Of a stretch of 64,000 nt of DNA, positions 5,212 through 63,335 are shown in pieces. Source of the DNA: Chloroflexota bacterium (lineage in GTDB: Bacteria; Chloroflexota; UBA11872). The position numbers and the translations under genes are program-made. Positions within the stretch are counted from its first letter, which is position 1, and each line of letters starts with the position of its first letter. The stretch spans positions 8,586 through 72,585 of the forward strand of contig JAJECS010000030.1 of assembly GCA_022821905.1 (NCBI GenBank). Direction: 5' to 3'. The notes under the pieces were generated by a model. The model saw only the letters and a program-made list of their open reading frames with translations. It had not been told where the DNA came from and did not search any database.

Positions 5212-6105
5212 ATGGCTACAGCGACCGTAGAACGCGATCTTTCCGATCTCCTGATTCCCACCGACGGGATTCCGAAGGAGGTTCTGCGAAAGGTCAAGCG
5301 CGCCGGCCGCCGAAAGATCATCAGCGATTCCTATCCCTATGCCACCAAGATGGGTCGGCAGGCGTACGAACGTCGGAAGGCGGAGTTGCAGGTCGAGTTG
5401 CTAAAGATGCAGCGGTGGGTCAAGGAGACGGGGCAGCGCGTCGTGCTGCTCTTTGAAGGCCGCGACGCCGCCGGCAAGGGCGGCACCATCAAGCGCTTCA
5501 TGGAGCACCTCAATCCCCGCGGCGCAACCGTGGTGGCGCTGCCGGCCCCGTCCGAGCGCGAGCGCAGCCAGTGGTACTTCCAGCGCTACGTGCAGCACCT
5601 GCCGGCAGAGGGCGAGATCGTGTTCTTCGACCGCTCCTGGTACAACCGGGCAGTCGTCGAGCCCGTAATGGGCTTCTGCACGCCGGCCGAGACGGTGCGA
5701 TTCCTGCGCGACACCGTCTTGTTCGAGCAAATGTTGATCAACGAGGGCCTGCGGCTGTTCAAGTTTTGGTTTTCGGTGAGCCAGGAGGAGCAGCTCAGGC
5801 GCGTCATGTCCCGCGCCCAGGACAGCCTCAAGCAGTGGAAGCTGAGCCCCGTCGACATGCGGTCGCTGCCGCTGTGGGACGAGTTCACCGAGGCGAAGAA
5901 GCTGATGTTCGCGGGTACCGACACAAAGGCGTCACCCTGGGTGGTCGTCAAGTCGGACGACAAGAAACGCGCCCGCCTAAACTGCATGCGCTTCTTGCTG
6001 CGGAGCTTGGAGTACGACCCCGACGGCGCGCGGCGCGTGACCAAGCCCGATCCGAAGGTGATCGGGCCCGCGAAGTCTCTCTACGGCAAGGACGAGGTCT
6101 GGTAG
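5212..6105 (+). CDS. ppk2: Polyphosphate kinase 2 (PPK2 family polyphosphate:nucleotide phosphotransferase)
   Basis: Walker A GRDAAGKGG with the PPK2 signature ...FDRSWYNRAVVEPVMGF... and the lid region; the ATG at 5212 is preferred over the TTG at 5164. Confidence 0.8.
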   Translation: MATATVERDLSDLLIPTDGIPKEVLRKVKRAGRRKIISDSYPYATKMGRQAYERRKAELQVELLKMQRWVKETGQRVVLLFEGRDAAGKGGTIKRFMEHLNPRGATVVALPAPSERERSQWYFQRYVQHLPAEGEIVFFDRSWYNRAVVEPVMGFCTPAETVRFLRDTVLFEQMLINEGLRLFKFWFSVSQEEQLRRVMSRAQDSLKQWKLSPVDMRSLPLWDEFTEAKKLMFAGTDTKASPWVVVKSDDKKRARLNCMRFLLRSLEYDPDGARRVTKPDPKVIGPAKSLYGKDEVW

Positions 6106-8267: not shown

Positions 8268-10136
8268 CTAGACCGGCCACACGATCGGCACGACGATCAG
8301 CGACGTGACCAGGATCAGCAGCGTCAGCGGCGCGCCCACCTTCAGGAAATCCACGAAGCGGTAGCCGCCGGCGTTGTAGACGAGCAGGTTGGCCTGGTGG
8401 CCGATGGGTGTGAGAAAGGCCGTCGAGGCCGAAATGGCCACCATCATGAGGGCCGGTTGCGGGGCGATGCCCGCGCCGGCGGCAATCTCGAGCGCCAACG
8501 GAGCGATGAGCACGACGGCGGCGGCGTTGGACATGAGCTGCGTCAGCAGCGCGGTGGCGACGAACAGCCCGGCGAGGACGGCCAGCGGCCCCATGGGGCT
8601 CACATATTCCGCGGCCCACTGCGCCGCGAGATCGGCCAGGCCCGTGGTGGTGACCGCGTCGCCCAACGGAATGAGCGTGCCGATGAGCACGATAGTGCGC
8701 CAGTCGACGGCCGTGTAGAGACGCTGGTATGGCAGCACGCGAAAGAGCAGCATCAAGATGATGCCGGCGGCAGCCGTCACGGCGATCGGCGCGATGCCCG
8801 CCGCAGCCAGGCCAACGACCGCCCCGAGAATGAGCACCGCCACGGCCATATGCGGTCGAACGGCCGGCCTCGCCGGCCGGCGGCCAAGCAGGATGAACTC
8901 GGGCGAGCGAGCGAAGGAATTGACGCGCTCGACGGGCACCCGGACGATCAGCACGTCGCCCGGCCGGATCTGCACATTGCGGATCGCACGGCCCAAGCGC
9001 TGCCCCTGACGCCAGATGCCCAACACCACGCCGCCATATCGCCGTCGAAAATTCATCTGGACGAGCGTCTGGTGCGCAAACCTGAATCCCGGCCCCGCGA
9101 CGAGCTCGACCACCGCGGTTCGCTCGCTCGCGTCGTCAAGCGTCAGCTCGGAGTCCTCACCGGCAAAACGCAGGCGCTGGGACTGGGCAAGGCGAGTGAC
9201 GGCTTCCAGCTCGCCTTCGACGATCAGCCGGTCGCCGGCATAGATCGCGTCCGACGGACCGGGAATTCGATTGCGGACGCCAAGGTGGGTGATTTCAACC
9301 ACGCCGATGTCGAAGCGCGACCGCCAGCGGAGCTGGGCCAACGTGCGCCCGGCGAGATCCGAATCGCCCGGCACCTCGAGCTCGACCATGAACTCGCGCG
9401 TCTGTTCGATTTCTCGATCGACGTCGGCGCCTTCGCGGGCGGGAATGAGCCGCGGCCCGGCAAGCAGGAGGTAGAGCAGCCCGACCGCCATGACCGCCAG
9501 GCCGGTCGGCGCGTAATCGAACATGCCGAACGGGGTCTCGCCGGCCCGCGCGAGCGCCTCGCTCACCAGCAGGTTTGGCGGCGTGCCGATGAGCGTGACC
9601 AGACCGCCCAGGAGGGAGCCGAATGAGACCGGGATGAGCAGCTTGGAGGGAAAGGACTTGGCGCCGAGCGCAAGGGTTGTGGCCGCGGGAATCAGGATCA
9701 CGGTGGCGGCAATGTTGTTCATCACGGCCGACATCACGCCCACGATCAGCACCAGCAGCGCCATGCGCAGGCGCAGGCCGCCGCCGAGACGCGCGATGAG
9801 GGCGGCGATCGCGGCCGGGACCCGGGCCTCGACGAGACCGGCGCTCAAGACGAACATTCCCGCCACCGTGATCACCGCGGGACTGCCAAACCCGCTGAAC
9901 ACCCGATCCGGCGTGACGAGGCCGGCGAAGGCCACCGCCAGCAGCGCCAGCACGCCGACCAGGTCGGGGCGCACGCGTTCGCTGGCGAAGAGCGCCAGGG
10001 CGCCGCCCAGCACGCCGATGAGAATCCAGGCGTCGGCTGTCATCGCGCTTCCGTGGTCATCCCGAGAGCGGGCAATGGGATAGGCTAAGGCCCGCGCATC
10101 GCAAATCGCCGCCGCGAGCGGGAGGAGTGAGGGCAA
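8268..10136 (-). CDS. SLC13/DASS (ArsB/NhaD superfamily) permease with two central TrkA-C (RCK_C) domains
   Basis: Multiple transmembrane segments at both ends and a central soluble region with a duplicated TrkA-C-like fold; 622 aa. Confidence 0.65.
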   Translation of the reverse strand: MPSLLPLAAAICDARALAYPIARSRDDHGSAMTADAWILIGVLGGALALFASERVRPDLVGVLALLAVAFAGLVTPDRVFSGFGSPAVITVAGMFVLSAGLVEARVPAAIAALIARLGGGLRLRMALLVLIVGVMSAVMNNIAATVILIPAATTLALGAKSFPSKLLIPVSFGSLLGGLVTLIGTPPNLLVSEALARAGETPFGMFDYAPTGLAVMAVGLLYLLLAGPRLIPAREGADVDREIEQTREFMVELEVPGDSDLAGRTLAQLRWRSRFDIGVVEITHLGVRNRIPGPSDAIYAGDRLIVEGELEAVTRLAQSQRLRFAGEDSELTLDDASERTAVVELVAGPGFRFAHQTLVQMNFRRRYGGVVLGIWRQGQRLGRAIRNVQIRPGDVLIVRVPVERVNSFARSPEFILLGRRPARPAVRPHMAVAVLILGAVVGLAAAGIAPIAVTAAAGIILMLLFRVLPYQRLYTAVDWRTIVLIGTLIPLGDAVTTTGLADLAAQWAAEYVSPMGPLAVLAGLFVATALLTQLMSNAAAVVLIAPLALEIAAGAGIAPQPALMMVAISASTAFLTPIGHQANLLVYNAGGYRFVDFLKVGAPLTLLILVTSLIVVPIVWPV

Positions 10137-11251
10137 TGGCCGAGAAAGGCGTGGCCGCCGCGTTCCTAGGTTCGCGCAAGCCCTTCGAGTTGCGCGAGTT
10201 TCCGATCCCGGACCCGGGGCCGGGGGCGGCCGTGGTCAAAATGAGCCTCGCGAACGTCTGCGGCTCGGACATGCACTACTGGCGCGGCGAGATGGACATG
10301 GTGAAGATGGGCCGGCCGATGCCGGCGGCGCTGGGGCACGAAGGCACCGGCGAGATCTATCGGCTGGGCGCCGGCGTGACGACCGACTCGATGGGCGATC
10401 CGCTCGAGGAAGGCGATCGAGTTCTCTTCTCATACCTCTACCCCGACCTGCAATGTCCCACCTGCCTCAAAGGCTATACCTTTGCCTGTCCAACGCGGCA
10501 GCATGATCGCCTGGGTGGGCTGGAAGAGTGGCCGCACTTCCGGGGCACGTTTGCACAGTACTACTACCTGCACCCCAACCACACGATGTACAAGGTGCCC
10601 GACCACCTCACGGACGACATGGTGGCGGGACTCAACTGCGCGTTGGTGCAGGTCATTTCCGGTTTGCGCCGCGCCGGCCTGTCGTTCAACGAAACGGTGG
10701 CCATCCAGGGCGCGGGAGGACTCGGCGTCTACGCGGCGGCGGTGGCCAAGGCCCACGGGGCCTCGAAAGTCATCGCCATCGACGGCGTGGATGAGCGCAT
10801 CGACCTGGTCCGCTCTTTCGGCGCGGACGAGATCGTGGACATGCGCGAGTTCGAGACGCCGGAGCAGCGCGTGGACCGCGTGCGCGAGCTCACCGATGGG
10901 CTGGGCGCCGACGTGACGCTGGAGCTCGTGGGACATCCGGGAGTGGTCACCGAGGGTCTGCAGATGACGGCGCCGGGCGGTCGATATCTCGAGATCGGCA
11001 ACATCAACGTCGGCTGGCATACCGAGTTCGATCCGTCGTGGATCGTCTTCCGCAGCATCTCGATCATCGGCGTGGCGCATTACACGTCGCAGGACCTGCG
11101 GCATGCCCTGGATTTCCTGAAGGACAACGTGTCGCGCTTGCCGTTCGACCGGGTGCTGTCGCATCACTTCCCGCTGGCCGACATCAACGAAGCGTTTGCG
11201 CAGCAGGACTCCGGGCGGATCACGCGCGGCGCCCTGGTGCCGCACGCCTAG
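10127..11251 (+). CDS. Zinc-dependent alcohol dehydrogenase family (MDR) oxidoreductase
   Basis: CGSDMHYW catalytic zinc motif, a structural-zinc Cys cluster (CPTCLKGYTFAC) and a GAGGLGVYA NAD(P)-binding motif. Confidence 0.8.
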   Translation: MRAMAEKGVAAAFLGSRKPFELREFPIPDPGPGAAVVKMSLANVCGSDMHYWRGEMDMVKMGRPMPAALGHEGTGEIYRLGAGVTTDSMGDPLEEGDRVLFSYLYPDLQCPTCLKGYTFACPTRQHDRLGGLEEWPHFRGTFAQYYYLHPNHTMYKVPDHLTDDMVAGLNCALVQVISGLRRAGLSFNETVAIQGAGGLGVYAAAVAKAHGASKVIAIDGVDERIDLVRSFGADEIVDMREFETPEQRVDRVRELTDGLGADVTLELVGHPGVVTEGLQMTAPGGRYLEIGNINVGWHTEFDPSWIVFRSISIIGVAHYTSQDLRHALDFLKDNVSRLPFDRVLSHHFPLADINEAFAQQDSGRITRGALVPHA

Positions 11252-12564: not shown

Positions 12565-13227
12565 ATGGCATTGACTAGTACGGCTGAAGACTATCTGCTT
12601 GCGATCTATGGGTTGCGCGCCGAGGGCGGGCCTGTCATCGCCGCCCGTCTTGCGGAGCGCCTGGGCGTTTCGGCCCCGACGGTGTCGGCATCGCTGGACC
12701 GGCTGGTGCGCGACGCGCATGTGTGGATCAATCCGCAGCGCGAGGTCTACCTGACGCTTGGCGGCGAGCGCACCGCCGAGAAGCTGGCCCGCCGCCACCG
12801 GCTCATCGAGCACTGGCTGATCCGGACTCTCGGGCTCGGCTGGGCCGAGGTGCACCACGAGGCCGACCGCCTGGAGCACGCCATCTCGCCCGAGCTGACG
12901 GACCGCATCTCGGAGGCGCTGGGCCATCCGCCGACCTGCCCGCATGGGCTGCCGATCCCGGGCAACTACCCGGAAACCGACGTGGGCAACCTTTTCAAGC
13001 TGTCGTCGGCCGACATCGGGTCCAAAGTGCGGGTCGTGCGACTCTCGGAGCCCGCCGAGGACGACAGCGACCTGCTGCACTATTTCGAGGACAAGCAACT
13101 CGTGCCCGGCCGCGTGATCGATGTGGTGGAGAAGACGCCGGCCGGGCATATCGTGGTGCAGGTGGACGACCAGGCGGCCGTGGTTGACGACACGGTCGCC
13201 GACAATTTGTGGGTGATGGCGGGCTAG
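12565..13227 (+). CDS. DtxR/MntR-family metal-dependent transcriptional repressor with a C-terminal FeoA/SH3-like domain
   Basis: An N-terminal HTH (AEDYLLAIYGL...) and a metal-binding/dimerisation region (HRLIEHWL...CPHG); the C-terminal SH3-like domain is typical of IdeR/DtxR; the start at MALTS (12565) is preferred over the ORF-track start at 12448. Confidence 0.8.
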   Translation: MALTSTAEDYLLAIYGLRAEGGPVIAARLAERLGVSAPTVSASLDRLVRDAHVWINPQREVYLTLGGERTAEKLARRHRLIEHWLIRTLGLGWAEVHHEADRLEHAISPELTDRISEALGHPPTCPHGLPIPGNYPETDVGNLFKLSSADIGSKVRVVRLSEPAEDDSDLLHYFEDKQLVPGRVIDVVEKTPAGHIVVQVDDQAAVVDDTVADNLWVMAG

Positions 13228-13323
13228 CCGCCCGTCGCACATTCCCCGCCCCATGACCATTCGTCGGTCGCCGCACGCCGCGCCGATGCGCCGACGTTTC
13301 ACCCGACGCGAGCAACCCCGAGC

Positions 13324-15906
13324 ATGACGGCCGAGGTCCGGCCAAGCCGCATTTTCACCGTGAGGCCCGCGCTTCCGCAGCGGCTCGAGCGCCTGCGCGA
13401 TCTGGCCTACAACGTGTGGTGGGCGTGGACGCCCGCGGCGCAGGACCTGTTTCGACGCATCGACGCCGAATCCTGGCACGCCTCGCAGGGGAATCCGGTG
13501 GCCGTGCTCACCCGAGCTGCTCCGGGCCAACTCCAAATGCTGGCCGAGGACCCGATTTTCACCGCCGACCTTGACCGCGTGGCTGAAGCCTATGACCAGT
13601 ATCTGAGCCGCCCCACGTGGTTCGAGCAAACGCACGGGCATCTCGAGGGACTGCGCGTGGCCTACGTCTCGATGGAGTTCGGGGTGGCGGAGTCGGTGCC
13701 CCTGTATTCAGGCGGCCTGGGGGTGCTGGCGGGTGATCAGCTCAAGGCCGCCAGCGATCTCGGTGTGCCGCTGGTCGGCGTCGGCATGCTCTATCGCCAG
13801 GGGTACTTCCGGCAGTCGATCGATCCCTCCGGCGCGCAGCGCGAGCAGTTTCCGGAAAACGACGTGGAGGTCCTGCCGGTGGTTGCGTTGCGCTCCGCCG
13901 ACGGGCAGCCGCTGACGGTTCGCGTGCCGATTGACGGGCATGAGATCGCGGTTCGGCTGTGGCGAATGGACGTGGGCCGCGTGCCGCTGATTCTGCTCGA
14001 TGCCAACACGCCGGAGAACAGCCCGGCCGACCGTGAGCTGACGTCCCGGCTGTACATCGGCGACAGCGACATTCGCATTCGGCAGGAGTTGCTGCTGGGC
14101 GTCGCCGGCATGCGCGCGTTGGACGCGCTCGATCTCACGCCGACCGTGGCGCACTTGAACGAGGGGCACAGCGCGTTTCTCATTCTCGAGCGCTTCCAGG
14201 CGCTCCGCGCACAGACCGGTCTCAGCGAGGCCGCGGCGATGCAGATCGTGCGCGCGACCAATGTCTTCACCACCCACACCCCGGTCGCGGCCGGCCACGA
14301 CGAGTTTTCGGCGGATCAGGTGAAGCGTCATGCCGGCGCCTACCTGGAGGCATCGAACATTGACGTCGAGCATGCACTGACCCTGGGCCGGGTGGACGGC
14401 GCCAACGATGGCGAGCCGTTCGGCATCACCACCCTGGCCATGCGCGGGTCCGCCTGGCGCAACGGCGTGAGCGCGCTTCACGGCACCGTGAGCCGCCGGA
14501 TGTGGGAACGGCTGTGGCCGGGCGTGCCGGTCAGCGAGGTTCCGATCGGCCACGTGACCAATGGCGTGCATCTGCGCACCTGGGTGTCTCGAGAGTTGAA
14601 CGGCCTGCTCCAGCGCTACATGGGGCGCCATTGGGCCGAGCGCACCGATCCGCAGGGCATCGAGGAGGGCTTGGCGGCCATTCCCGACGACGAGCTTTGG
14701 CGGGTCCATACGCAACGTCGCGAGCGCCTGGTGGCCAACGTCCGGCGACGCCTGCGAGCGCAAGCGGAGCATCGAGGCGCCGCCGCGCACGAGCTGGCGC
14801 AGGCGTCCGCCGCCCTGCACAGCGACGTGCTCACGGTCGGGTTCGCGCGCCGCTTCGCGCTCTACAAGCGCCCAACTCTGCTGCTGCACGACGTGGAACG
14901 GCTCAAGGCCATCGTCGCGAACTCTCACCGACCGGTGCAGATCATCTTCGCGGGCAAGGCCCATCCCAACGACGATCTGGCCAAGGACCTGCTGCGCGAA
15001 ATCACGGCCATCAGCCGCGATCCGGCCTTCGACGGGCGGCTGGTATTCGTCGAGGACTACGACATGGGACTGGCGCGCGACCTGGTGCAGGGTTGCGACG
15101 TGTGGCTGAACCTGCCGATTCCACCGCAGGAGGCCAGCGGCACGAGCGGCATGAAGGCGGCGGCCAACGGCGTGCTCAACGCCAGCGTTCTCGACGGTTG
15201 GTGGGACGAGGCCTATACCCCGGAAGCGGGTTGGGCGATTGGCCGGGCAGACGTTGACGACGACCGGCAGCGGGATGCAAGCGACGCCGCGGCCATTTAC
15301 GACCTGCTCGAGCACACGGTGGCGCCGTTGTTCTACGACGTCGGCGCGGGAGAGACACCGATTGCCTGGATCCGAATGGCTCGACGCTCAATGGCCCTGG
15401 CGCTGACGGGCTACAGCGCGAATCGAATGGTCCAGAATTATGTCGAGTCGTTTTATGGACCCGCGCATCTGCTCGGCCGGAGCCTGCGCGAGCACCACGG
15501 CGGCGCGGCCACCGACCTTGCCCATTGGCTCGACCACCTGGTGGCCCAGTGGCCCCACGTGCGCGTATTGGAGGTGCACGCAGACGGACCCAGCCAGGTT
15601 GACGCGGGCGTGGTGGTGCCCATTCGGACCCAGGTGGCCCTGGCGGGCCTCAGTCCCGATGACGTGACGGTCGAGGTGTTCGTGGGTCACGTGGACTTCG
15701 AGGGAACGCTGATCGGCGGTCGGGCCGAGGTGGCGGGGCATGCGAGCGCGGAGGCGGACGGCGCCCACTGGTTCACCGGACGCGCGGTGCTGGCCCAAAG
15801 CGGACGCCTCGGCATCGCCGTCCGGGTAGTCCCGCGCCATGCCTTGCTGGCCGGGCCGTACGACGCCGGGCTGATTCGCTGGAGCGAGGCGGCCGGCGCG
15901 ACCTGA
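13324..15906 (+). CDS. glgP: Alpha-glucan (glycogen/maltodextrin) phosphorylase, GT35, alpha-glucan phosphorylase subfamily
   Basis: An N-terminal DUF3417-like segment (AYNVWWAWTP), the GT35 core (GGLGVLAGD, EGHSAFL) and the pyridoxal-phosphate region FAGKAHPNDDLAKDL. Confidence 0.85.
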   Translation: MTAEVRPSRIFTVRPALPQRLERLRDLAYNVWWAWTPAAQDLFRRIDAESWHASQGNPVAVLTRAAPGQLQMLAEDPIFTADLDRVAEAYDQYLSRPTWFEQTHGHLEGLRVAYVSMEFGVAESVPLYSGGLGVLAGDQLKAASDLGVPLVGVGMLYRQGYFRQSIDPSGAQREQFPENDVEVLPVVALRSADGQPLTVRVPIDGHEIAVRLWRMDVGRVPLILLDANTPENSPADRELTSRLYIGDSDIRIRQELLLGVAGMRALDALDLTPTVAHLNEGHSAFLILERFQALRAQTGLSEAAAMQIVRATNVFTTHTPVAAGHDEFSADQVKRHAGAYLEASNIDVEHALTLGRVDGANDGEPFGITTLAMRGSAWRNGVSALHGTVSRRMWERLWPGVPVSEVPIGHVTNGVHLRTWVSRELNGLLQRYMGRHWAERTDPQGIEEGLAAIPDDELWRVHTQRRERLVANVRRRLRAQAEHRGAAAHELAQASAALHSDVLTVGFARRFALYKRPTLLLHDVERLKAIVANSHRPVQIIFAGKAHPNDDLAKDLLREITAISRDPAFDGRLVFVEDYDMGLARDLVQGCDVWLNLPIPPQEASGTSGMKAAANGVLNASVLDGWWDEAYTPEAGWAIGRADVDDDRQRDASDAAAIYDLLEHTVAPLFYDVGAGETPIAWIRMARRSMALALTGYSANRMVQNYVESFYGPAHLLGRSLREHHGGAATDLAHWLDHLVAQWPHVRVLEVHADGPSQVDAGVVVPIRTQVALAGLSPDDVTVEVFVGHVDFEGTLIGGRAEVAGHASAEADGAHWFTGRAVLAQSGRLGIAVRVVPRHALLAGPYDAGLIRWSEAAGAT

Positions 15907-16033
15907 GGCGCGGGCGTCGTGCAATGGCCGCGCCTTTTGTGAGTGACCGTTCAAGCGTTTACCCTGAGGTACGGTTCCGACCGGCAGTCCGGTCGGACAG
16001 CGCTTGCGCCGACACAGGAGGAATCCCCCGTCG

Positions 16034-16291
16034 ATGACGTACGTAATTGCCGAGCCATGCATCGGTACGAAGGACGCCTCGTGCGTGGACGTTTGCCCTG
16101 TTGACTGCATCCATCCGGGACCAGACGCACCCGAACATGAGGCGGCCGAAATGCTCTACATCGATCCCGTGGAGTGCATCGACTGCGGCGCCTGCGAGCC
16201 GGTTTGCCCCGTAACCGCGATCTTTCCGGACTTCGACGTGCCGGATGAGTGGGAGCACTACACCAAGATCAACGCGGACTATTTCGCGTAG
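16034..16291 (+). CDS. fdxA: 7Fe ferredoxin ([3Fe-4S][4Fe-4S], FdxA type)
   Basis: The MTYVIAEPC start with Cys motifs [17 protein letters not shown] and [12 protein letters not shown]; a GGAGG ribosome-binding site lies 12 nt upstream. Confidence 0.85.
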
Positions 16292-16306
16292 CCGAACGCT
16301 CGGCGG

Positions 16307-17644
16307 CTAGGCGGCGCCCTTGTGCATGACTGCCAGCGCCTCATAGGAGGGCCTGGGCGTGCCGTCGGGGCGCAGCACGCCGAAGGGGAACTTCTCGTCT
16401 TCCGGGCCCACGACGGACTGGAAGTTGAGATTCCAGACGAACGCGTGGGTGATGTAGTCGTATTGCTCGCGCACGAGCCGAATGGCATCGACGAGAAACT
16501 CCGCCTGATCGGCCTCGGAATTGTCGACGCCGTAGCCGTAGGCCGGGTCCTGATTGGCGGTTGACCAGCCAAACTCAGTGATCCAGATGGGCTTGGCCCC
16601 GTCGCCAAATTCCTCCATGACGGCCCGGTGCTGCGTGAAGCGCTGAAAGTAGAAGCTCGCGTGACCGTTCCAGCCGTCCCCACGGGGAGACCCGATCTCC
16701 TGGCGCGGGGCATTGTTGAATCCCCCGGGGTGGATGCCCCATGCGTCGAAGCCGTCGCGCACGATCCCATCGTTGTACTCATACATGCGGCGGAGGAATG
16801 ACACATCGTCCACGGCCTGCACCTGCTGGTCGGGAATGTCGACGTCACCGGCGGGTGTGAGCGCGCCGCCAATGGTCACGGCGGCGGGATCGCCGGCGCG
16901 CACGCCGCGGCGGCCGGCCAAGAGCAGATCCACGAACCCTCCGGCGTTGATGCGGCCATAGCCCCACTCGCGCGAGAGATTGGCCTCGTTCCACAGCTCA
17001 TAGGCCTGTACCGCGCCCCGATACCGGGACGAGATAGTGCGCATAAAGTCTTCAAAGTCCTGGGGGTCGGCCGGCGGGCCGTGCGCCCCCTCGCCGAGCG
17101 CCCAACCGGGCGCGCGGACCACGCTGAGCAGCAGATTCAGGCCAGCGGAGGCTACGGCCGCCACCACTTTGTCGAGTTCCCGCCAGTCGTAGCCGCCCTT
17201 CTCGATCGGCTCGGTTTGACTCCATTCCACCTGCTGCTTGAGCCAGTTGAATCCCGCGTCGAGCGTCTTGCCGACAATGAAGTCGCGGTCCTGGTTGTAG
17301 ATATGGGCCTGAAAGCCATAGCCCTCCAGACGGCGAAGCGCCGCGTCGGGGTCGTTGGGATCGGGAGTCGGCAGCCCCGGGCTCGGCGCGACCGGCGCCG
17401 GTGTGACGGGGCTCGGCGTGGCCGGGCTCGGCGTGGCGGAACTCGGCGTGAGGACTCGAGGCGTCTGCACGCCCGCGGTGGCCTGGGGGTCCGCCCGCGT
17501 CGGTGTTGGCTCGGAAGGTGCGGCGACCGTGACCGCTTCGGTCACGTTGTCGCCGGACTCGCCACAGGCGAGGGTGACGGCTCCGGCCGCGAGGAGGGTC
17601 AGCAATCGCCGCCGCGACCACTGGCGCGGCATGGAATCTGGCAA
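16307..17644 (-). CDS. Secreted lipoprotein glycoside hydrolase, clan GH-A (GH5-like) TIM barrel
   Basis: A Tat/Sec-like signal with lipobox (RRRLLTLLAAGAVTLAC) followed by a Pro/Thr/Ser-rich linker; the catalytic acid/base motif ELWNEAN and the nucleophile motif ITEFGWS. Confidence 0.65.
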   Translation of the reverse strand: MPDSMPRQWSRRRLLTLLAAGAVTLACGESGDNVTEAVTVAAPSEPTPTRADPQATAGVQTPRVLTPSSATPSPATPSPVTPAPVAPSPGLPTPDPNDPDAALRRLEGYGFQAHIYNQDRDFIVGKTLDAGFNWLKQQVEWSQTEPIEKGGYDWRELDKVVAAVASAGLNLLLSVVRAPGWALGEGAHGPPADPQDFEDFMRTISSRYRGAVQAYELWNEANLSREWGYGRINAGGFVDLLLAGRRGVRAGDPAAVTIGGALTPAGDVDIPDQQVQAVDDVSFLRRMYEYNDGIVRDGFDAWGIHPGGFNNAPRQEIGSPRGDGWNGHASFYFQRFTQHRAVMEEFGDGAKPIWITEFGWSTANQDPAYGYGVDNSEADQAEFLVDAIRLVREQYDYITHAFVWNLNFQSVVGPEDEKFPFGVLRPDGTPRPSYEALAVMHKGAA

Positions 17645-17757
17645 CGTGCGACGTATCCTTGAGTACAGACCGCATGGATGGTATCAAGGCAGGGATGAGG
17701 CGCCGACGACCGCCAAGCTGGCGCCTCCCAACCAACCGTCGCTAGAGGAAGGTCCGC

Positions 17758-18621
17758 ATGGCCCAGCGCAGATACGGGAATTCAGTCCTAGGCATAGGCG
17801 TGATCGTGGTGATCGCCGTGATCATCATCGGGCTGTTCAGCGTCCGCTTCGTGGGCGTTGGCGAAGTCGGCGTGATTCACACGTTCGGCGTCGTGGACCC
17901 GATACCAAAGCCACAGGGACTGCTGCTGAAGCTCCCGTGGGCGACGCTGGACACCTACAGCGTGCGGACGCAGTCGATCACGATGAGCTCGCGAGCCGAG
18001 GAGGTGGGCGCCTCCGACCAAACCGTCCGTACGCTCACCTCGGAGGGGTTGTCCGTCGGGCTCGACATCACCACGCTCTTCGTGCTCACGTTCGACAATG
18101 CCCCGAGCGTCCGCAATAACGTCGGGCCGGAAGGCGTCTATCAGGAAATCATCGTGCGACCGGCAATTCGCGATGCCATTCGCGACGTGGTGGCGCAGTT
18201 CACCGCCGAGGCGCTGTATACGACGGCTCGTGAGGAGATCAGCACGCTCATCGAGCAGCAGCTCGACGAGTCCCTCAATCCGCGCGGGGTGGCGATCCAA
18301 AACGTGCTGCTGCGCGATGTGACGCTGCCGGCGGTGATCACCCAGGCCATCGAGAACAAGCTGGCCGCCGAGCAAGCGATTCAGGAACGGCGCTTCCGGG
18401 TCGACGAGGCCAAGGAGGAGGCGCAGCGCCGGATCGAAGAGGCGAACGGTATCGCCGAAGCCAACCGGCGCATCAACGAATCGCTCACCGCGGCCGTGCT
18501 GCAGGACAAATACATCCAGGCTTTGCGCGACATGGGCTCGGGCAGCGTGGTGTACGTGCCCACGAACCCGGAAACCGGGTTGCCGGTGATCCTGGGGACC
18601 CCGGAGCTCGGATCGAACTGA
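17758..18621 (+). CDS. SPFH/band-7 (stomatin/prohibitin/HflKC-like) membrane protein
   Basis: An N-terminal transmembrane helix followed by an SPFH domain and a coiled-coil Ala/Glu-rich region. Confidence 0.75.
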   Translation: MAQRRYGNSVLGIGVIVVIAVIIIGLFSVRFVGVGEVGVIHTFGVVDPIPKPQGLLLKLPWATLDTYSVRTQSITMSSRAEEVGASDQTVRTLTSEGLSVGLDITTLFVLTFDNAPSVRNNVGPEGVYQEIIVRPAIRDAIRDVVAQFTAEALYTTAREEISTLIEQQLDESLNPRGVAIQNVLLRDVTLPAVITQAIENKLAAEQAIQERRFRVDEAKEEAQRRIEEANGIAEANRRINESLTAAVLQDKYIQALRDMGSGSVVYVPTNPETGLPVILGTPELGSN

Positions 18622-18682
18622 CCGCCGGCGGGAGCGACCGAGCCGTAGGGTAGGATGCCGCCGGGCTCGACCCGGCGGCGAT

Positions 18683-18755
18683 GGGCGATTAGCTCAGCTG
18701 GGAGAGCGCTACGTTTACACCGTAGAAGTCGCAGGTTCGAGTCCTGCATCGCCCA
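18683..18755 (+). tRNA. tRNA-Val (anticodon TAC)
   Basis: A manual cloverleaf: acceptor GGGCGAT, D-arm GCTCAGCTGGGAGAGC, anticodon loop TTTACAC and T-arm GCAGGTTCGAGTCCTGC. Confidence 0.85.
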
Positions 18756-18792
18756 CCGGCATCGCGCGATCGCCCTTCGGGGCCGTGCGCAT

Positions 18793-18868
18793 GGCGAGAT
18801 AGCTCAGTCGGTAGAGCAGTGGACTGAAAATCCATGTGTCGCCAGTTCGATTCTGGCTCTCGCCACCA
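18793..18868 (+). tRNA. tRNA-Phe (anticodon GAA), canonical copy with an encoded CCA
   Basis: GGCGAGATAGCTCAGTCGGTAGAGCAGTGGACTGAAAATCCATGTGTCGCCAGTTCGATTCTGGCTCTCGCCACCA closely matches bacterial tRNA-Phe. Confidence 0.9.
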
Positions 18869-19216
18869 AGCCGTCTCCGTCGGGGGAAGCTCGCCCCGGA
18901 TTAGCCCGCCGATTCTCCGGCGCCTGATTGCCAGGCCGGCTGACCGATTTCAAGCGCGCAACTCCGCAGGGTATGGTCAGGGCAGCGCGACAAGCATCAG
19001 CGATCCATAGTCGGACTCCGGCGCGGCCTCCGTGAACGCGATGCTGCCTGCGGGGCGTTGCCATCCGGCGCCAGCGCCGTCCTCACGTCGTACCAGTTGC
19101 TGCCCGAAGCCCCACGAGACCCTGGGGTAAACTTGGCGGGTACGGGGGCAAACCGCTAACCCATAGTCACCTCCCGCAAGCATCTGCCCCTCCTGGCAGC
19201 AACCCTCCTGTCCCTG

Positions 19217-20698
19217 GTGGTCATCGCCGCCCTGTACGTCCGCACACTCGACAACTACTTCCAATCCGACGACTTCGACTGGCTGTATACGTATGGCGCG
19301 CGTGCAGCGGCGGCAGGGACGGTGCAGGCGGTGCTGGCCCCGCCCGACCCGGCCTTGGTCGATCCGGCGGATCCCTTCACGTGGAATTACCGGCCCACTA
19401 CTGCCTTGCTCGTCAACGGGCTGTTCCGCCTGTTCGGGGTTGGTGCGCCGGCTGGGTATCACGCGATTCTGATTGCGGGACGCCTGGTGGCGTCGGCGCT
19501 GGCAGGCATGCTGGCGGGCCGCCTCACAGGCCGTGCCTGGATCGGCGCGGCTGTGGTGGCGGTGTTCGGGCTCCACTTCGCGCATGTCGAGACGGTGGCG
19601 TGGTTCGGCTCGATCGCTGAAGTCGTCGCCGGCGTGCTGGGGCTCGCGGCGGTGCTTGCGTTTCTGCACTACCGAGAATCAGGCCGTGCGCGCTGGGCGT
19701 GGACCGCAATTGTGATGTACGGCTTAGCGCTGGGCGCCAACCCCACGGCAGCGCCGATTATCGGAGTCTTTGTGCTGCTGGACCTTTGGCGGTCCGCTCG
19801 CGGAGCCGGACGCCGCTGGAATGCGCATTGGGTCTACTTGCCACTACTAGCGCTAGCGGGCGCGTACCTCGCCATAGAGGCGGCCGCTCTGAGTGTGGCG
19901 GCCGGGAGCGGCGGCTATGGGTATAGCCTCGGTTCGCATGTGCTGCTGAATGCGCTCTGGTACCCCGCAGTTCTTGTTGCCCCCTTCACTGAGCCAGAAC
20001 TGTTCGATGTGCACCGCGCACTGCTTGCCGCAGTCGATGGAAGCGGGTCACTCGCCGACCTCGCGGTGACAGCGAGATTTGCGCCGGTGCTTGTCGCACA
20101 CGTCGCAGTCATCGGCGCGGCTGGCTGGATTGCGGTTCGCGGTCCGGGATGGGCCCGCGTGGCTGTTGCCGCCGCGCTCTGCCTCGAAGCGCCCTTTGTC
20201 CTGCTCGGTGGAACGATGTTCCACTTTGCCTATCTGCCGGCAGCCTTTGTTCTGACCTTAGGCGTCGCCGCCCTGATGGTCAGTTCCCACGCGATGGCCA
20301 GGATGCTGCCGTGGTCCCGGGCGGTTGGTGCGGCGCCGGTGCTTGTTGCTGCAGGTCTCCTGGCCTGGCAGACGCATGGCCGCCTCGACGACTGGGAGTT
20401 TGCCGCCGGCCTCAGCCATCGACTGGTCCAGAGCGCTCACGCGGAGCTGGGCGACATACCCACGGGATCGACCGTAATTGCCGGGGGCCTGCCCAACACG
20501 GTCAACGGCGCCTATGTGTTTCGCGAAGGATTTCCGGCAGCGCTCAAAGTGACATACGGCCGCTCTGACTTTGAGGTTCAGACGTTTAGCCCGCCGGTCG
20601 TCATGCGCTTGATGTCGGAGTCGGACGCTAGCGACAGGCGTTATTTCCTGACCTATGAACCGTCAGCCATGGCCCTTCAGCGTGCAACCCACCGCTAG
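19217..20698 (+). CDS. Polytopic integral membrane protein, possibly a GT-C fold (ArnT/PMT/GT39-87-like) glycosyltransferase
   Basis: 493 aa with 10-12 predicted transmembrane helices and loop motifs such as HFAHVETVAWFG; GTG start; lies between two tRNA-Phe copies. Confidence 0.45.
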   Translation: MVIAALYVRTLDNYFQSDDFDWLYTYGARAAAAGTVQAVLAPPDPALVDPADPFTWNYRPTTALLVNGLFRLFGVGAPAGYHAILIAGRLVASALAGMLAGRLTGRAWIGAAVVAVFGLHFAHVETVAWFGSIAEVVAGVLGLAAVLAFLHYRESGRARWAWTAIVMYGLALGANPTAAPIIGVFVLLDLWRSARGAGRRWNAHWVYLPLLALAGAYLAIEAAALSVAAGSGGYGYSLGSHVLLNALWYPAVLVAPFTEPELFDVHRALLAAVDGSGSLADLAVTARFAPVLVAHVAVIGAAGWIAVRGPGWARVAVAAALCLEAPFVLLGGTMFHFAYLPAAFVLTLGVAALMVSSHAMARMLPWSRAVGAAPVLVAAGLLAWQTHGRLDDWEFAAGLSHRLVQSAHAELGDIPTGSTVIAGGLPNTVNGAYVFREGFPAALKVTYGRSDFEVQTFSPPVVMRLMSESDASDRRYFLTYEPSAMALQRATHR

Positions 20699-20883
20699 CG
20701 AACAACGTCGTCGGCCATGGCAGGTGACTCATCCGATCCCGGACCTGAACACCGTGCCAACCGGCCCGGCCGCGAATTTGAGGATGGGTAGCGGCCGACG
20801 ACGCAATCTCCATCCCGAGAGTCCGTAGCACGGGACAAGCCAGCCCACCGGCGTCGCCGATTCCGGCCACGGACCGAGCGCAT

Positions 20884-20956
20884 GGCGAGATTGCTCAGTC
20901 GGTCGAGCAGTGGACTGAAAATCCATGTGTCGCCAGTTCGATTCTGGCTCTCGCCA
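20884..20956 (+). tRNA. Second tRNA-Phe (GAA) copy with 2 substitutions (T9, C21) and no encoded CCA
   Basis: Identical to the 18793 copy except A9>T and A21>C; the 7 nt upstream (GCGCATG) are also shared; it may be a functional variant or a decaying duplicate. Confidence 0.7.
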
Positions 20957-21122
20957 CCTGGAACAACGCGTTTGCCCATCGCGCCCGGGGCGTGTGGGGA
21001 AGGGCCGCGCCACGTGGACGCATCGAAAGCCTGGATTCCGGCCGTCGGAGACCCCTGCAGAATCCAGCCGGGCTTGGGGATGACCGGGCGATTCCTGTCC
21101 GCCCCTAGGTTCAGTGAAGGGT

Positions 21123-21148
21123 GGATTCCCGCCTTCGCGGGAATGACG
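21123..21148. repeat. Copy of the GGATTCCCGCCTTCGCGGGAATGACG dispersed repeat
   Basis: Exact motif; intergenic, between the second tRNA-Phe and the cyclophilin gene. Confidence 0.75.
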
Positions 21149-21224
21149 AAGGGTTACGCACAGGTCCGTCCATCGCGGGAGTGCCGCGCCAGATGGTCGA
21201 CTCGCCGACCCCGAACCGGCGGTC

Positions 21225-21869
21225 TTAGCAGCCGCTGTAGATGGTCATGCTGGGGAGGCACCCGAAGTTGATCTGCACGGTCTGCACCGTGACCTCCTCC
21301 AGCGGCGCCGAGTCTCCACCAAGGGCGACGCCGCCAATCTTGTCCAGCGTCGTCTGCGACGGCGTGTGGTTCTCCTTGACGCGCGCGAAGATTGTGGCGT
21401 TCGCCGGCAATTCGTCTTCCGACACGTCGCTGAGCAGAATGTAGAACCGCGACCCATTGGAGTTCGGCGCGCCCGAGTTCGCCATCACCAAATCGCCGCG
21501 CCGGTAGGGCTGCTGCGGCGGCTCGATCTCGAACGTATAGCCGGGGTCACCGGTACCGGTGCCGGTGGGATCGCCGGTCTCGACGAGCACGCCGGGGACC
21601 ACGCGGTGCACCGTCATGCCGTCGTAATAGCCCTCCTGGGCCAGAAACAGGAAGCTGTTCACCGCCCGAGGCGCCTCCTGCGGCACGAGGTTGAAGGTCA
21701 TGCGCCCGAGGCTGGTGGTGAACACGGCGCTGTAGGGTCGAAGCTCCTCAACCGTCATCTCGGGCTCGGCCGCGAACGTCGGCGGACCCTCGGGTTCCGG
21801 CTCGCCACACGCGGCCACCGCAACCGCGGCGATCGCCACGACCAACGCAATCACGATTGCTCGCCACAT
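21225..21869 (-). CDS. Cyclophilin-type peptidyl-prolyl cis-trans isomerase, lipoprotein
   Basis: Cyclophilin core (FHRVVPGVLVETGDP...MANSGAPNSNGSRFYI) with a signal peptide and lipobox (AVAACGEP); a paralog (about 60% identity) of the tandem pair at 36126-37660. Confidence 0.8.
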   Translation of the reverse strand: MWRAIVIALVVAIAAVAVAACGEPEPEGPPTFAAEPEMTVEELRPYSAVFTTSLGRMTFNLVPQEAPRAVNSFLFLAQEGYYDGMTVHRVVPGVLVETGDPTGTGTGDPGYTFEIEPPQQPYRRGDLVMANSGAPNSNGSRFYILLSDVSEDELPANATIFARVKENHTPSQTTLDKIGGVALGGDSAPLEEVTVQTVQINFGCLPSMTIYSGC

Positions 21870-22022
21870 GGCCCGAAGCTCCGAATCCAACCGTCGACTC
21901 ACCCTCTATTTTGCCGCGTTGGCCGCTCTATCGCCATGCAAGGCCCGCTGAGTTGTCCGAGGGGTCGCATGCGCTACGGTTTGGGGCCGTGCCGGTCACG
22001 CCGCTTGGCGTGAGGGGACCTC

Positions 22023-22787
22023 GTGAGCGTCGACATCGACGAATGCGTCGCCGACATCCTGGACGTCGGGCACTGCGTCGTGCCGAATCACTTTCCCAAG
22101 GCGGCGATCGACGCCTTTCACGAGGGATTCCTGCCGCTGCTGGCGAAAGTCGCCTCCCGCATTCCCGAGGGAAACCGGCGGGCAAACCGCTGGGCCATCG
22201 GCCTGCCCTTCGCCCCGCCGTACTATCAGTCCGCGTTCTTCGGCGACGACACGGTCAACGAAATCGTTGGCCGCATCCTGGGCGAAAACATGTTCATCGC
22301 CTACTACGGCACGGACACACCGGTCGCGGGATCGGAGGACCAGCAGGTGCACTCGGACATTCGCCCGCTGTTTCCCGAGCAGCCGGACCTGCGCTATCCG
22401 CCGCCTACGCTCTCGGTGCGGTTCACGAGCGTGGACATGACTCTCGAAAATGGGCCCTACAGCACGTCCGAACGCACGCAGCACCTCACCCGGGACGAGG
22501 CGCGGGCGAAGCTGGCCGCCGGGGAGATCGAGCTCGCGCCGTTGCTGCTCCGGGCGGGCGACGTGCTCATCAGCGATGCCCGCACGCTGCACCGGGGCAC
22601 GGCGAATCGCACGAACGCGCCGCGTCCCTTCGCGGTGATCGTCTACAACCGCGACTGGTACCACCTGGAGAGCGAGTTTCGGCTGGAGGCCAACGAGGAG
22701 ACGCCGATGCTGCTGGAGTCCTTCTACTGGACGCTGCCGACGGCCGAGCAGCAGCTCCTCAGGCGAGTGCCAAGGACGGATGGCTGA
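22023..22787 (+). CDS. Phytanoyl-CoA dioxygenase (PhyH) family Fe(II)/2-oxoglutarate-dependent oxygenase
   Basis: An HSD...H(RG) facial-triad pattern (QQVHSDIRP...TLHRGTAN) in a PhyH-like fold. Confidence 0.65.
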   Translation: MSVDIDECVADILDVGHCVVPNHFPKAAIDAFHEGFLPLLAKVASRIPEGNRRANRWAIGLPFAPPYYQSAFFGDDTVNEIVGRILGENMFIAYYGTDTPVAGSEDQQVHSDIRPLFPEQPDLRYPPPTLSVRFTSVDMTLENGPYSTSERTQHLTRDEARAKLAAGEIELAPLLLRAGDVLISDARTLHRGTANRTNAPRPFAVIVYNRDWYHLESEFRLEANEETPMLLESFYWTLPTAEQQLLRRVPRTDG

Positions 22788-23334
22788 GGGAAAGCGCCCG
22801 ATAGTTCGAGTGCCGGCGGAGACTCGCCTCGTCGTCGTTCCCTACGATCCGGAATGGCCGGCCATGTACGAGCGCGAACGGGCAGAGATTGCCGCGTGCA
22901 TCGATCAGCACATCCTGCGCATCGAGCACGCGGGGAGCACCTCGATCCCCGGCATGGCCGGCAAGCCAACGATCGACATCCTGGTGGGTGTCCAGGATTG
23001 GGACGCGGCGAGGGTCACCTTGGGGCCGCTGGCCGAGATCGGATGGGAGTTTCGCGGCGAGCGCGGCATGCCCCGCCGCCACTTGTTTCGCCGGCTCAAT
23101 GCCCGGGGCCGCCGCACGCACCAGCTGCACATGCTGGAGGTGACCCACCCGGCATGGGACGCGATGCTGCTCTTTCGCGATCATTTGCGCAGCCATTCGG
23201 ATGTTGCGGCGCAGTACCAGCGGCTCAAGCTCGACCTGGCGCGGCGGTTTCCCGACAGCCGGGGCGAGTACACGGCGGGGAAAGAAGCGTTTGTGCGGGG
23301 AGTGCTGGCGCAGGCGCGGCGAGCGCGAATCTGA
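22780..23334 (+). CDS. GrpB-family protein (UPF0157, minimal nucleotidyltransferase-like fold)
   Basis: VVVPYDPEWPAMYERERAEI...HAGSTSIPGMAGKPTIDILVGV is the GrpB signature; overlaps the upstream gene by 8 nt, suggesting co-transcription. Confidence 0.7.
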   Translation: MAEGKRPIVRVPAETRLVVVPYDPEWPAMYERERAEIAACIDQHILRIEHAGSTSIPGMAGKPTIDILVGVQDWDAARVTLGPLAEIGWEFRGERGMPRRHLFRRLNARGRRTHQLHMLEVTHPAWDAMLLFRDHLRSHSDVAAQYQRLKLDLARRFPDSRGEYTAGKEAFVRGVLAQARRARI

Positions 23335-23406
23335 ACGGGCGATTCGTCGGGCCACCCTGTCGATAGACTTGAGGCCGTGCGATCGCGTGAATGACGGGCC
23401 GGCACC

Positions 23407-24255
23407 ATGACGCTTTCCGACCAACAATTGGCGTTCTTCGAGACCTTCGGCTACCTGACCTTTCCGGGAGCCTTCGCCGACGAAGCCGAGAGGATCGCCG
23501 ACGAGTTCGAGCGGGTGTGGGCGGATCATGGCGGCGGCCACAACCGTCAGGCGCACGACCATGAACGCCGCTCAGCCCTGGTGCCGTTCATCGACCAGAA
23601 CGAGTATCTGAGCGCGCTGCTGGACGATCCGCGCGTGGACGGCGTCGTCAGCGCGCTGCTCGGAGACGACTACAACTACACCGGGAGCGACGGCAACTTC
23701 TACGTGGGCGACACGCGCTGGCACTCCGACGGCTTCGCCCGATCGAAATACCGCTCCATCAAGATCGCGTTCTACCTGGACCCGGTCACGCGAGACTCGG
23801 GATGCCTGCGGGTGATTCCCGGCAGCCATCATCGCGGCGACGACTATGCCGAGTCGCTGCAGCGGATCATGCCAAGCAGCCGGTCGGCGTCGGTCCAGGA
23901 GCGACTGGGCATCGACGGTCGCGACGTGCCCGACCTGGCCCTGGAATCGCAACCGGGCGACATGGTGCTGTTCATTCACGACCTGAAGCACGCGTCGTTC
24001 GGGGGCGGAACCCGGCGGCGCATGTTCACCATCAATATGTCCGAGCGCTTCCGTGACGACGACATCGATGAGCTGCGCGAGGACGTCGCGACCCTCGTCA
24101 GGTTCTGGGCCGAGCGGGCGTACGGCGACGTGATGATCCGCACGGCCGGCCCGCGCCGAATGCGGCACCTGGAGCAACGGCTCGCTAACGACGATCACTT
24201 GCCTGAACTGGTCCGCCAGGCGCGCCAGGAGATGATCGAGCCGTCGCGCAGCTAG
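23407..24255 (+). CDS. Second PhyH-family Fe(II)/2OG dioxygenase
   Basis: PhyH-like: ...GDTRWHSDGF... and a downstream His in LKHASFGG. Confidence 0.65.
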   Translation: MTLSDQQLAFFETFGYLTFPGAFADEAERIADEFERVWADHGGGHNRQAHDHERRSALVPFIDQNEYLSALLDDPRVDGVVSALLGDDYNYTGSDGNFYVGDTRWHSDGFARSKYRSIKIAFYLDPVTRDSGCLRVIPGSHHRGDDYAESLQRIMPSSRSASVQERLGIDGRDVPDLALESQPGDMVLFIHDLKHASFGGGTRRRMFTINMSERFRDDDIDELREDVATLVRFWAERAYGDVMIRTAGPRRMRHLEQRLANDDHLPELVRQARQEMIEPSRS

Positions 24256-53978: not shown

Positions 53979-54078
53979 CCGAGAGTTGTCACGCCCGGAC
54001 GCGGGGGCTCTGGGCCCACACGGACAAGTCAGGGACGGCCGGGGAAAGCCGTGTGCGGCCGCAAGTTGGATGACGGGT

Positions 54079-54143
54079 GGATTCCCGCCTTCGCGGGAAT
54101 GACGGAAGGGGGCGGGAATGACGGATGCGGCAGGAATGACGGA
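54079..54143. repeat. Dispersed-repeat copy extended by three tandem GGGAATGACGGA-like units
   Basis: GGATTCCCGCCTTCGCGGGAATGACGGAAGGGGGCGGGAATGACGGATGCGGCAGGAATGACGGAGG. Confidence 0.7.
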
Positions 54144-56462: not shown

Positions 56463-56489
56463 TGGATTCCCGCCTTCGCGAGAATGACG
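56463..56489. repeat. Copy of the GGATTCCCGCCTTCGCG(A/G)GAATGACGG dispersed repeat
   Basis: Intergenic, immediately downstream of the cupredoxin-like gene. Confidence 0.75.
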
Positions 56490-63331: not shown

Positions 63332-63335
63332 GCGT

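Follow-up and report, generated by a model that had tools for sequence, protein, structure and literature searches.

A predicted GT-C glycosyltransferase gene and a probably decaying second tRNA-Phe at a tRNA-Val/tRNA-Phe insertion hotspot of uncultured Chloroflexota

Tandem islands specific for the ssrA gene were described in Dehalococcoides (Chloroflexota), where they are bounded by a 20-bp repeat of the 3' end of the RNA gene; many of these islands, which harbor no integration module, are considered to be fixed or moved in cis (McMurdie et al., 2011; PMC3146451). Elsewhere, tRNA fragments and pseudo-tRNAs that integrated elements leave behind were reported to be scored wrongly as tRNA genes (van der Gulik et al., 2023; PMC9897764). 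Here we analyze a 64,000-nucleotide stretch from a Chloroflexota bacterium (assembly GCA_022821905.1, contig JAJECS010000030.1, positions 8,586 to 72,585), hereafter the window, in which a tRNA-Val gene is followed by two tRNA-Phe(GAA) genes that bracket a single membrane protein gene. By analogy, tandem and strain-variable islands located at stable RNA genes, such as the ssrA islands of Dehalococcoides, appear to be the closest known system. Very probably, about 2.1-2.3 kb of DNA carrying a glycosyltransferase gene together with its own tRNA-Phe was acquired at a Val/Phe hotspot, and the redundant second tRNA-Phe is now decaying. Such an event belongs to ordinary genome plasticity.

The relatives retrieved through the Band_7 protein encoded upstream of the tRNA genes are all uncultured Chloroflexota represented by metagenome-assembled genomes. 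One genome, L012, is nearly conspecific with the window, exhibiting 97.2% nucleotide identity over positions 12575-18873 and 95.4% over 21204-24096 (blastn); the alignment stops at 18873 and resumes at 21204, and L012 has 134 nt in place of window positions 18874-21203. Such an empty site, in the order Band_7, tRNA-Val, 35 nt, tRNA-Phe, about 130-160 nt and a cyclophilin gene adjoining tRNA-Phe, is found in L012, L015 and L018, which have neither the membrane gene nor the second tRNA-Phe, and more distant relatives (Band_7 about 70% identical) present tRNA-Val and tRNA-Phe separated by 23 nt. Relative to the near-conspecific genome, the second tRNA-Phe and the membrane gene therefore constitute an insertion.

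The left junction of the insert (CCA-AAGCCG/TCTCCG) lies 6 nt past the CCA of the first tRNA-Phe, inside the flank common with L012, and is identical in the window and in L009, although the flanks of these two genomes are 82-90% identical (10-18% different). Segments 18869-18964 and 19032-19216 match L009 at 93%; between them L009 has 340 nt in which part of a surface-protein gene of LRR/cadherin type is found. L008 and L016 have this gene intact, and the homology of the insert to L027 starts at about 19010. The interior of the insert appears to have undergone later erosion: an intact 1252-aa LRR/fn3 gene with an IS110 is present in L008, the LRR fragment alone in L009 and nothing of it in the window.

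The metagenomic source of the sequence would be consistent with an assembly artefact in which two strains were joined across the 76-nt tRNA repeat, and Logan unitig L002, which also carries the sequence, breaks exactly at both tRNA-Phe copies, as is typical of repeats in assembly graphs. Such an artefact is extremely improbable. An independent soil metagenome scaffold (L001, ENA) has the same arrangement with identical sequence, the same junctions occur in L009, a long-read contig of another sample, and positions 9 and 21 distinguish one copy from the other, the tRNA and both its flanks fitting in one short read.

We called tRNA genes with ARAGORN, scored them in bits with the Rfam tRNA model and identified repeats by a search within the window. 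Two tRNA-Phe(GAA) genes around a membrane gene were confirmed in this way, with 74.7 and 65.5 bits, and Rfam matched three tRNAs and nothing else in the interval. The features of the locus, in window coordinates, are the following:

18683-18757, plus strand: tRNA-Val(TAC), Rfam 70.3 bits, identical in L009, 3' end TCGCCCACC
18758-18792, plus strand: spacer s1 from Val to Phe, resident type, nearly the same as in empty-site L012 and close to L013, L014, L015 and L008
18793-18868, plus strand: tRNA-Phe(GAA) copy 1, resident and functional, CCA encoded, Rfam 74.7 bits
18869-18874, plus strand: AAGCCG, final bases common with empty-site L012; left junction at 18874/18875, the same in L009
18875-19184, plus strand: left non-coding portion of the insert, scarred by an internal deletion (18965-19031)
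19185-20698, plus strand: predicted GT-C-fold membrane glycosyltransferase gene (cargo), annotated start GTG 19217, likely true start 19185
20699-20840, plus strand: right arm of the island, non-coding, about 100-140 nt, 94% identical to L009 and 80% to L008
20841-20849, plus strand: CAGCCCACC, direct repeat of the tRNA-Val 3' end TCGCCCACC, 7/9 bases matching
20850-20883, plus strand: spacer s2, diverged homologue of s1, found beside the membrane gene only (window, L009, L028)
20884-20958, plus strand: tRNA-Phe(GAA) copy 2, redundant and probably decaying, Rfam 65.5 bits, A9T, A21C, no encoded CCA
20959-21203, plus strand: downstream flank of copy 2, missing in L012, resembling the Phe-downstream flanks of L014 and L013, with a repetitive extragenic palindromic (REP)-like repeat at about 21115-21153
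21225-21902, minus strand: cyclophilin-type peptidyl-prolyl isomerase gene (Pfam PF00160, E = 1.3e-29), conserved right neighbour

The adjacent tRNA-Val and tRNA-Phe genes are an insertion hotspot in this clade, since 13 close-clade genomes, the window included, give nine arrangements of the locus, L013, L017 and L019 being counted as one type (Val, other cargo, Phe):

L012, L015, L018: empty site
L014: Val, NUDIX, Phe
L017: Val, GSDH-cytochrome c, Phe
L013: Val, GSDH-cytochrome c and a membrane protein of unknown type, Phe
L019: Val, cargo of unknown type, Phe
L016: Val, LRR/fn3 protein and more, >8 kb
L027: Val, membrane gene, single intact Phe
L028: Val, membrane gene, decayed Phe, NUDIX, Phe
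L009: Val, NUDIX, Phe, membrane gene, decayed Phe
Window: Val adjoining Phe, membrane gene, decayed Phe
L008: Val adjoining Phe, LRR, IS110, membrane gene, Phe deleted

Depending on the relative, tRNA-Val and tRNA-Phe are 35 nt, 1.2 kb, 3.2 kb, 3.5 kb, 6.7 kb or >8 kb apart. The islands of L009, L013, L014, L016, L017, L019, L027 and L028 start directly past ...TCGCCCACCG(G) of tRNA-Val, and all islands end in the same manner: an arm about 100 nt long, homologous between islands, precedes a copy of (TC)GCCCACC, a spacer and tRNA-Phe (alignments A1 and A4); window positions 20699-20849 are a diverged member of this arm family. The sequence TCGCCCACCGG, of only 9-11 nt, is present at the 3' end of tRNA-Val and again ahead of the spacer in L009, L013, L014 and L028. 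The membrane gene, arm, core, spacer s2 and tRNA-Phe form a block that is kept together in the window, L009 and L028, and s1 with its tRNA-Phe is of the resident type found at empty sites. A NUDIX-hydrolase module of about 1.1-1.3 kb is also established at the hotspot (L009 4194-5259, L028 ~9625-10939, L014 9001-10181); it precedes the membrane-gene module in L009 and comes after it in L028, the order being thus reversed.

As the original prediction had stated for the integrase, no recombinase family was detected among the genes called up to about 10 kb from either end of the insert (Pfam labels, L001), nor in the open reading frames (ORFs) of the islands of L013, L014, L016, L017 and L019, nor in any of the nine arrangements. 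The IS110 transposase of L008 and an rve fragment in L005 are unrelated insertions.

Other cargoes of the hotspot include an LRR/PKD/fn3/cadherin-type gene, present as a fragment in L009 (5476-5815) and intact in L008 (373-4131, 1252 aa) and L016 (11133-14687, 1184 aa), and islands encoding a fusion of cytochrome c with glucose/sorbosone dehydrogenase in L013 (9542-12061) and L017 (9260-11707). A membrane protein of about 500 aa with no Pfam match is encoded in L013 (13309-14829) and L016 (14968-16461), the two being 65% identical to each other; tried as relatives of the window membrane protein, they turned out to be unrelated in comparison. The arm itself was considered as a long decayed 3' half of tRNA-Val (CCGTAG...GCAGG...TCGCCCACC), an idea that was rejected because similarity outside the 9-nt core is not significant (local alignment with the core removed against 2000 shuffles, p = 0.13-0.70). 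An attC-like hairpin or another conserved RNA/DNA structure was similarly rejected for the arm, RNAalifold giving -14.5 kcal/mol with a covariation contribution of -0.18 and no convincing helix, and scans of viral contigs gave no match to the arm motif. About 50 nt 5' of tRNA-Phe, the arm motif CGTAGTACAGTGCAGG (20820-20830) is kept where the downstream tRNA-Phe is functional and is degraded (TAGCAC, TCGCAC, TGGCAC) where this tRNA-Phe is decaying or deleted; it might be a candidate promoter element for tRNA-Phe genes parted from tRNA-Val. On the other side of tRNA-Phe, the window contains at least four copies of the REP-like palindromic repeat GGTGGATTCCCGCCTTCGCGGGAATGACGAAGG (21115-21153, 54071-54110, 549-578 and 56463-56489), and in most relatives the variable stretch that separates tRNA-Phe from the cyclophilin gene is filled with related copies (GGATTCCGGC...GCCGGAATGACGG).

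The likeness to the ssrA islands of Dehalococcoides lies in the use of a small stable-RNA gene as a recurrent insertion point, in the short repeat of an RNA-gene 3' end that bounds the far side (9-11 nt of tRNA-Val here, 20 bp there), and in the possibility of tandem islands whose number and content vary between strains. Unlike them, the Val-Phe islands encode no recombinase in any of the 13 genomes, are small (1-8 kb), comprise two modules that are reversed between L009 and L028, and end in a repeat unit that includes a complete neighbouring tRNA and its spacer, resulting in a full-length duplicate. Similarly, the extra and lower-scoring tRNA call beside strain-specific DNA resembles the cases of PMC9897764 in being a by-product of insertion and no true addition to the tRNA set, whereas copy 2 is full length with an intact cloverleaf and would be redundant through import of a whole gene and not through duplication of an attachment site.

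The extent of the repeat is larger than first thought. An 88-nt repeat (18780-18867 and 20871-20958, 95% identity) is preceded by a second block (18751-18765 and 20843-20857) with a 1-nt offset, so that the 7 nt of duplicated upstream flank mentioned in the original prediction are part of a unit of about 118 nt, comprising the last 7-9 nt of tRNA-Val (GCCCACC), the Val-Phe spacer and tRNA-Phe. Identity within the unit reaches 97% over tRNA-Phe and about 71-77% over the 44 nt upstream of it (10 mismatches or gaps). Divergence is much higher in the spacer than in the tRNA, and the two units thus probably diverged in separate genomes, with both tRNAs under selection. This bears on the suggestion of a segmental duplication with a degenerating copy, of which the degeneration of copy 2 was upheld (6/75 differences from its L009 counterpart against 0/76 for copy 1, p = 0.014) and a recent duplication in place was not (spacer about 71%, tRNA 97%).

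Slippage or unequal crossing-over within this chromosome could also have duplicated the tRNA-Phe region in tandem, the membrane gene being inserted between the copies later. Such a local duplication would indeed account for a full-length duplicate that includes upstream sequence and for the uniform overall G+C of the region. It is nevertheless highly improbable. The contrast between a 97% identical tRNA and a co-duplicated spacer of only about 71% needs a long divergence in separate genomes, copy 2 is preceded by the right arm that is conserved in islands of other genomes, and the block of gene, arm, s2 and tRNA-Phe travels together in L009, L028 and L027. Moreover, no intermediate with adjacent tRNA-Phe copies, identical spacers and no gene was found among the 13 genomes.

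The original prediction alternatively considered the footprint of an integrated or excised element that had regenerated the tRNA. The interval is inserted, as seen above; the regeneration of tRNA-Phe by an integrase did not stand, given a repeat of the whole tRNA and a junction 6 nt past the CCA. In its full form, this explanation requires a tyrosine or serine integrase, since lost, that inserted an integrative element at the 3' end of tRNA-Phe, copy 1 being the regenerated gene and copy 2 the displaced attachment-site copy. It would fit direct repeats that include a tRNA and bracket a gene missing from a near-conspecific genome, the left junction that is identical in two genetic backgrounds, and the similarity between the 3' ends of tRNA-Phe (TCGCCACC) and tRNA-Val (TCGCCCACC). 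We consider it very unlikely all the same. Integrases that target tRNA genes reportedly duplicate the 3' part only, whereas the repeat in the window is made up of the whole tRNA-Phe gene, the 35-nt spacer that precedes it and the 3' end of tRNA-Val; the junction on the left falls 6 nt beyond the CCA in a flank common with L012; the spacers are only about 71% identical; an integrase is found in none of the nine arrangements; and L027 harbors the same island between tRNA-Val and tRNA-Phe, not past tRNA-Phe.

The second tRNA-Phe differs base by base from the first as originally described, with A9T, A21C and ACC-T instead of ACCA. The missing CCA is no sign of decay, because the sole tRNA-Phe of L013, otherwise canonical, also ends with ACC-T. 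Functional tRNA-Phe genes are 100% identical at tRNA positions 1-75 in 12 genomes, L013 differing at position 76 alone, and those of a distant clade exhibit just three compensatory stem changes (7-66, 50-64, 52-62). The island-linked tRNA-Phe of L027, which is the sole copy, is intact. Redundant island-linked copies carry 2, 4 and 7 changes in the window, L009 and L028, respectively, each unique and non-compensatory: A9T and A21C in the window (65.5 bits against 74.7 for copy 1), T20G, A37T, C41A (a stem mismatch) and T54C in L009 (53.1 bits), and in L028 seven changes that include A31C, T39A and C71G and break the 31-39 and 2-71 pairs. In L008, the island-linked tRNA-Phe is deleted. Copy 2 and its counterparts thus deviate from functional tRNA-Phe at conserved tertiary and loop positions (purine 9, A21, A37, T54) and in the integrity of stems.

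When the window is compared with L009, copy 2 has changed at 6/75 positions, which is no different from the adjacent intergenic DNA (11/185, p = 0.58), whereas copy 1 is invariant (0/76, Fisher p = 0.014); relative to adjacent non-coding DNA, copy 2 therefore presents no purifying selection in this pair. Substitutions that depend on the context, the deletion in L008 and a divergence like that of intergenic DNA next to an invariant copy 1 all indicate that copy 2 is, as judged from the sequence comparison, a redundant tRNA gene drifting neutrally and decaying. The decay appears to be independent in each lineage, because the substitutions are all different.

A maintained copy 2, acting as an isodecoder or as a tRNA-like RNA with a non-translational role (regulation, processing signal, promoter or terminator), could explain why its cloverleaf is intact in the window with 65.5 bits, and a pseudo-tRNA that flanks an island in Bacillus cereus, reported to have a non-translational role (PMC3399842), offers a precedent. 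Here such maintenance is really unlikely, as orthologous copies break stems or invariant positions differently (C41A and T54C in L009; A31C, T39A and C71G in L028), the copy is deleted in L008 and its divergence is as fast as that of intergenic DNA.

The cargo of the insert is the membrane gene. The 493-aa ORF predicted from GTG 19217 to 20698 is present; its GTG start is doubtful, since it is located within the first transmembrane helix (TM1). Homologues encode the entire TM1, and in the window the helix continues in frame 5' of the GTG up to an in-frame TAA at 19157-19159, with no ATG, GTG or TTG between this TAA and GTG 19217. Position 19185, which is CTG in the window and L009 and TTG in L027, is likely the true start rather than GTG 19217. 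L009 shares the missing canonical start 5' of TM1, yet the gene is under purifying selection. Because the ratio of nonsynonymous to synonymous substitution rates is 0.148 against L009 and 0.13-0.21 across all pairs, the membrane gene is apparently functional and under purifying selection. It has 37 close homologues with 61-92% identity, all restricted to this clade.

The original prediction proposed, with caution, a GT-C-like glycosyltransferase. A search of Pfam with the membrane protein gave no family over threshold, PMT_2 (PF13231) included, although weak PMT_4TMC matches occur in 10/20 homologues (best E = 0.0037). Similarly, a sequence-profile search of PDB detected no similarity to solved structures, and the hhalign comparison with neighbouring PMT_2 proteins was not significant (probability 0.2%). 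The AlphaFold2 model (predicted local distance difference test score 73.6, predicted template modelling score 0.75) matched GT-C glycosyltransferases only in Foldseek (STT3, ArnT, PglB, DPY19). An exhaustive profile search retrieved 45,106 representatives at E <= 0.001, of which the nearest are proteins of 570-630 aa with transmembrane (TM) and TPR regions, several of them over the Pfam cut-off of PMT_2; the link to PMT_2 is thus indirect, through TM+TPR proteins that pass PMT_2. The protein possesses, as GT-C enzymes do, an N-terminal transmembrane module with long extracytoplasmic loops and conserved acidic loop residues. Directly past TM1 stands NYFQSDDFDW, in which SDDFDW is nearly invariant and D37, D38 and D40 are conserved at >=90% (alignment A2); these acidic residues of the first extracytoplasmic loop may be catalytic. 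The assignment to predicted GT-C-fold glycosyltransferases, in agreement with the earlier proposal, holds on the fold search and the exhaustive profile search, the Pfam, PDB profile and hhalign results being all negative.

The acidic SDDFDW past TM1, the reach of the profile search to TM+TPR proteins that pass PMT_2 and the presence of PMT_2 neighbours are shared with the PMT_2/ArnT/STT3/TMTC group of GT-C enzymes. Compared with the nearest large family of TM+TPR proteins, the window protein has a small alpha/beta domain instead of the C-terminal TPR domain, and in contrast to PMT_2-type families it remains under every Pfam threshold and has no sequence-profile match to solved structures. Homologues of the membrane gene are convergent with a PMT_2 gene in L003, L010 and L011, close to one in L030 and just downstream of one in L005; L004 is an exception with no PMT_2 neighbour. 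Because the gene is mostly found beside PMT_2 genes in these more distant relatives, its copy at the tRNA locus looks relocated. The composition of the region had been proposed as a further check. Overall G+C is flat at about 0.65, and the G+C at third codon positions (GC3) of the membrane gene, 0.73, is the lowest among 16 neighbouring genes (0.83-0.90 for most). The low value gives no signal to date a transfer, since low GC3 is common to the whole family and to PMT_2 clusters everywhere.

Taken with the arrangements in relatives, these data lead us to infer the import by recombination of an island segment that contained its own tRNA-Phe. The Val-Phe pair of this clade collects foreign or relocated DNA, the islands being located directly past the 3' end of tRNA-Val. 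In a first step, an island with the membrane gene would have been located between tRNA-Val and tRNA-Phe, as in L027, its entry possibly occurring through site-specific recombination at the Val 3' end. In a second step, the right part of this island, i.e., the gene, arm, Val-end repeat, s2 and its own tRNA-Phe, would have recombined into an L012-like chromosome, and a join placed 6 nt downstream of the resident tRNA-Phe would have provided a second complete tRNA-Phe. The DNA joined in this way most likely came from a related strain and recombined through homology on its cyclophilin side, the left end being an illegitimate join or one within the tRNA; alternatively, a circular fragment may have entered by a single crossover within tRNA-Phe. 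During uptake of DNA from relatives, bacteria are said to undergo homology-facilitated illegitimate recombination, which the insert would resemble, to judge from its end points, in having a homologous end on the cyclophilin side and a non-homologous one 6 nt past tRNA-Phe. Since then, selection would keep one tRNA-Phe, the island-linked copy drifting at the neutral rate while the cargo stays constrained.

Several observations weigh against this history. No recombinase of any kind, integrases and transposases included, lies within the insert or close to it, which prevents us from naming the mobilising enzyme. The window and L009 have their left junction in common despite the 10-18% difference of their flanks, which would imply either that the block spread after a single old event or that the junction is site-specific. 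Outside the 9-11-nt core, the arm shows no significant similarity to tRNA-Val (p = 0.13-0.70), and the case for an attachment site thus depends on a short repeat. A donor with s2 in native position was not found, and a metagenome scan with the 20-mer of the left junction gave a single match, to an unrelated contig. Finally, copy 2 of the window carries only two substitutions and its cloverleaf still folds, so that residual function is possible in the window genome.

The reversed order of modules in L009 and L028 and the left junction common to two backgrounds suggest another view, in which the Val-Phe locus is a cassette-collecting site served in trans by a recombinase encoded elsewhere in the genome. 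Small modules without an integrase, each made up of the cargo, a conserved arm of about 100 nt, the Val-end core, the spacer and tRNA-Phe, would then be captured and rearranged, tRNA-Phe being part of the recombination site. We regard this view as unlikely, and retain import of an island segment with its own tRNA-Phe.

A few observations elsewhere are worth recording. ARAGORN detected tRNA-Leu(CAA) and tRNA-Trp(CCA), 3 nt apart, on the minus strand at 63245-63411 of the window. Two tandem cyclophilin-type paralogues on the minus strand (36192-36662 and 36980-37507) are 53-57% identical to the gene at 21225-21902. A 445-aa ORF on the minus strand (16307-17644), 5' of Band_7, has only borderline matches to glycoside hydrolases (Cellulase/GH5, E = 4.8e-5, just under the cut-off). 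In L021, ARAGORN reported at 5892-5988 a 97-nt 'tRNA-???' with a four-base anticodon (gacg), probably a false positive.

Current concepts are unchanged by the findings at this locus, which have practical consequences for annotation: the second tRNA-Phe is a probable pseudogene that should be flagged and left out of the tRNA set, and the start of the membrane protein gene needs to be reconsidered. The relatives provide a natural series from a sole intact copy through redundant copies with 2, 4 and 7 substitutions to deletion, which shows the pace at which a redundant tRNA decays. The cargo defines a clade-restricted branch of predicted GT-C proteins with neither a TPR domain nor a Pfam model. 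In these poorly known soil Chloroflexota, a strain-variable hotspot appears to move cell-surface and glycosylation genes without a recognisable mobility gene.

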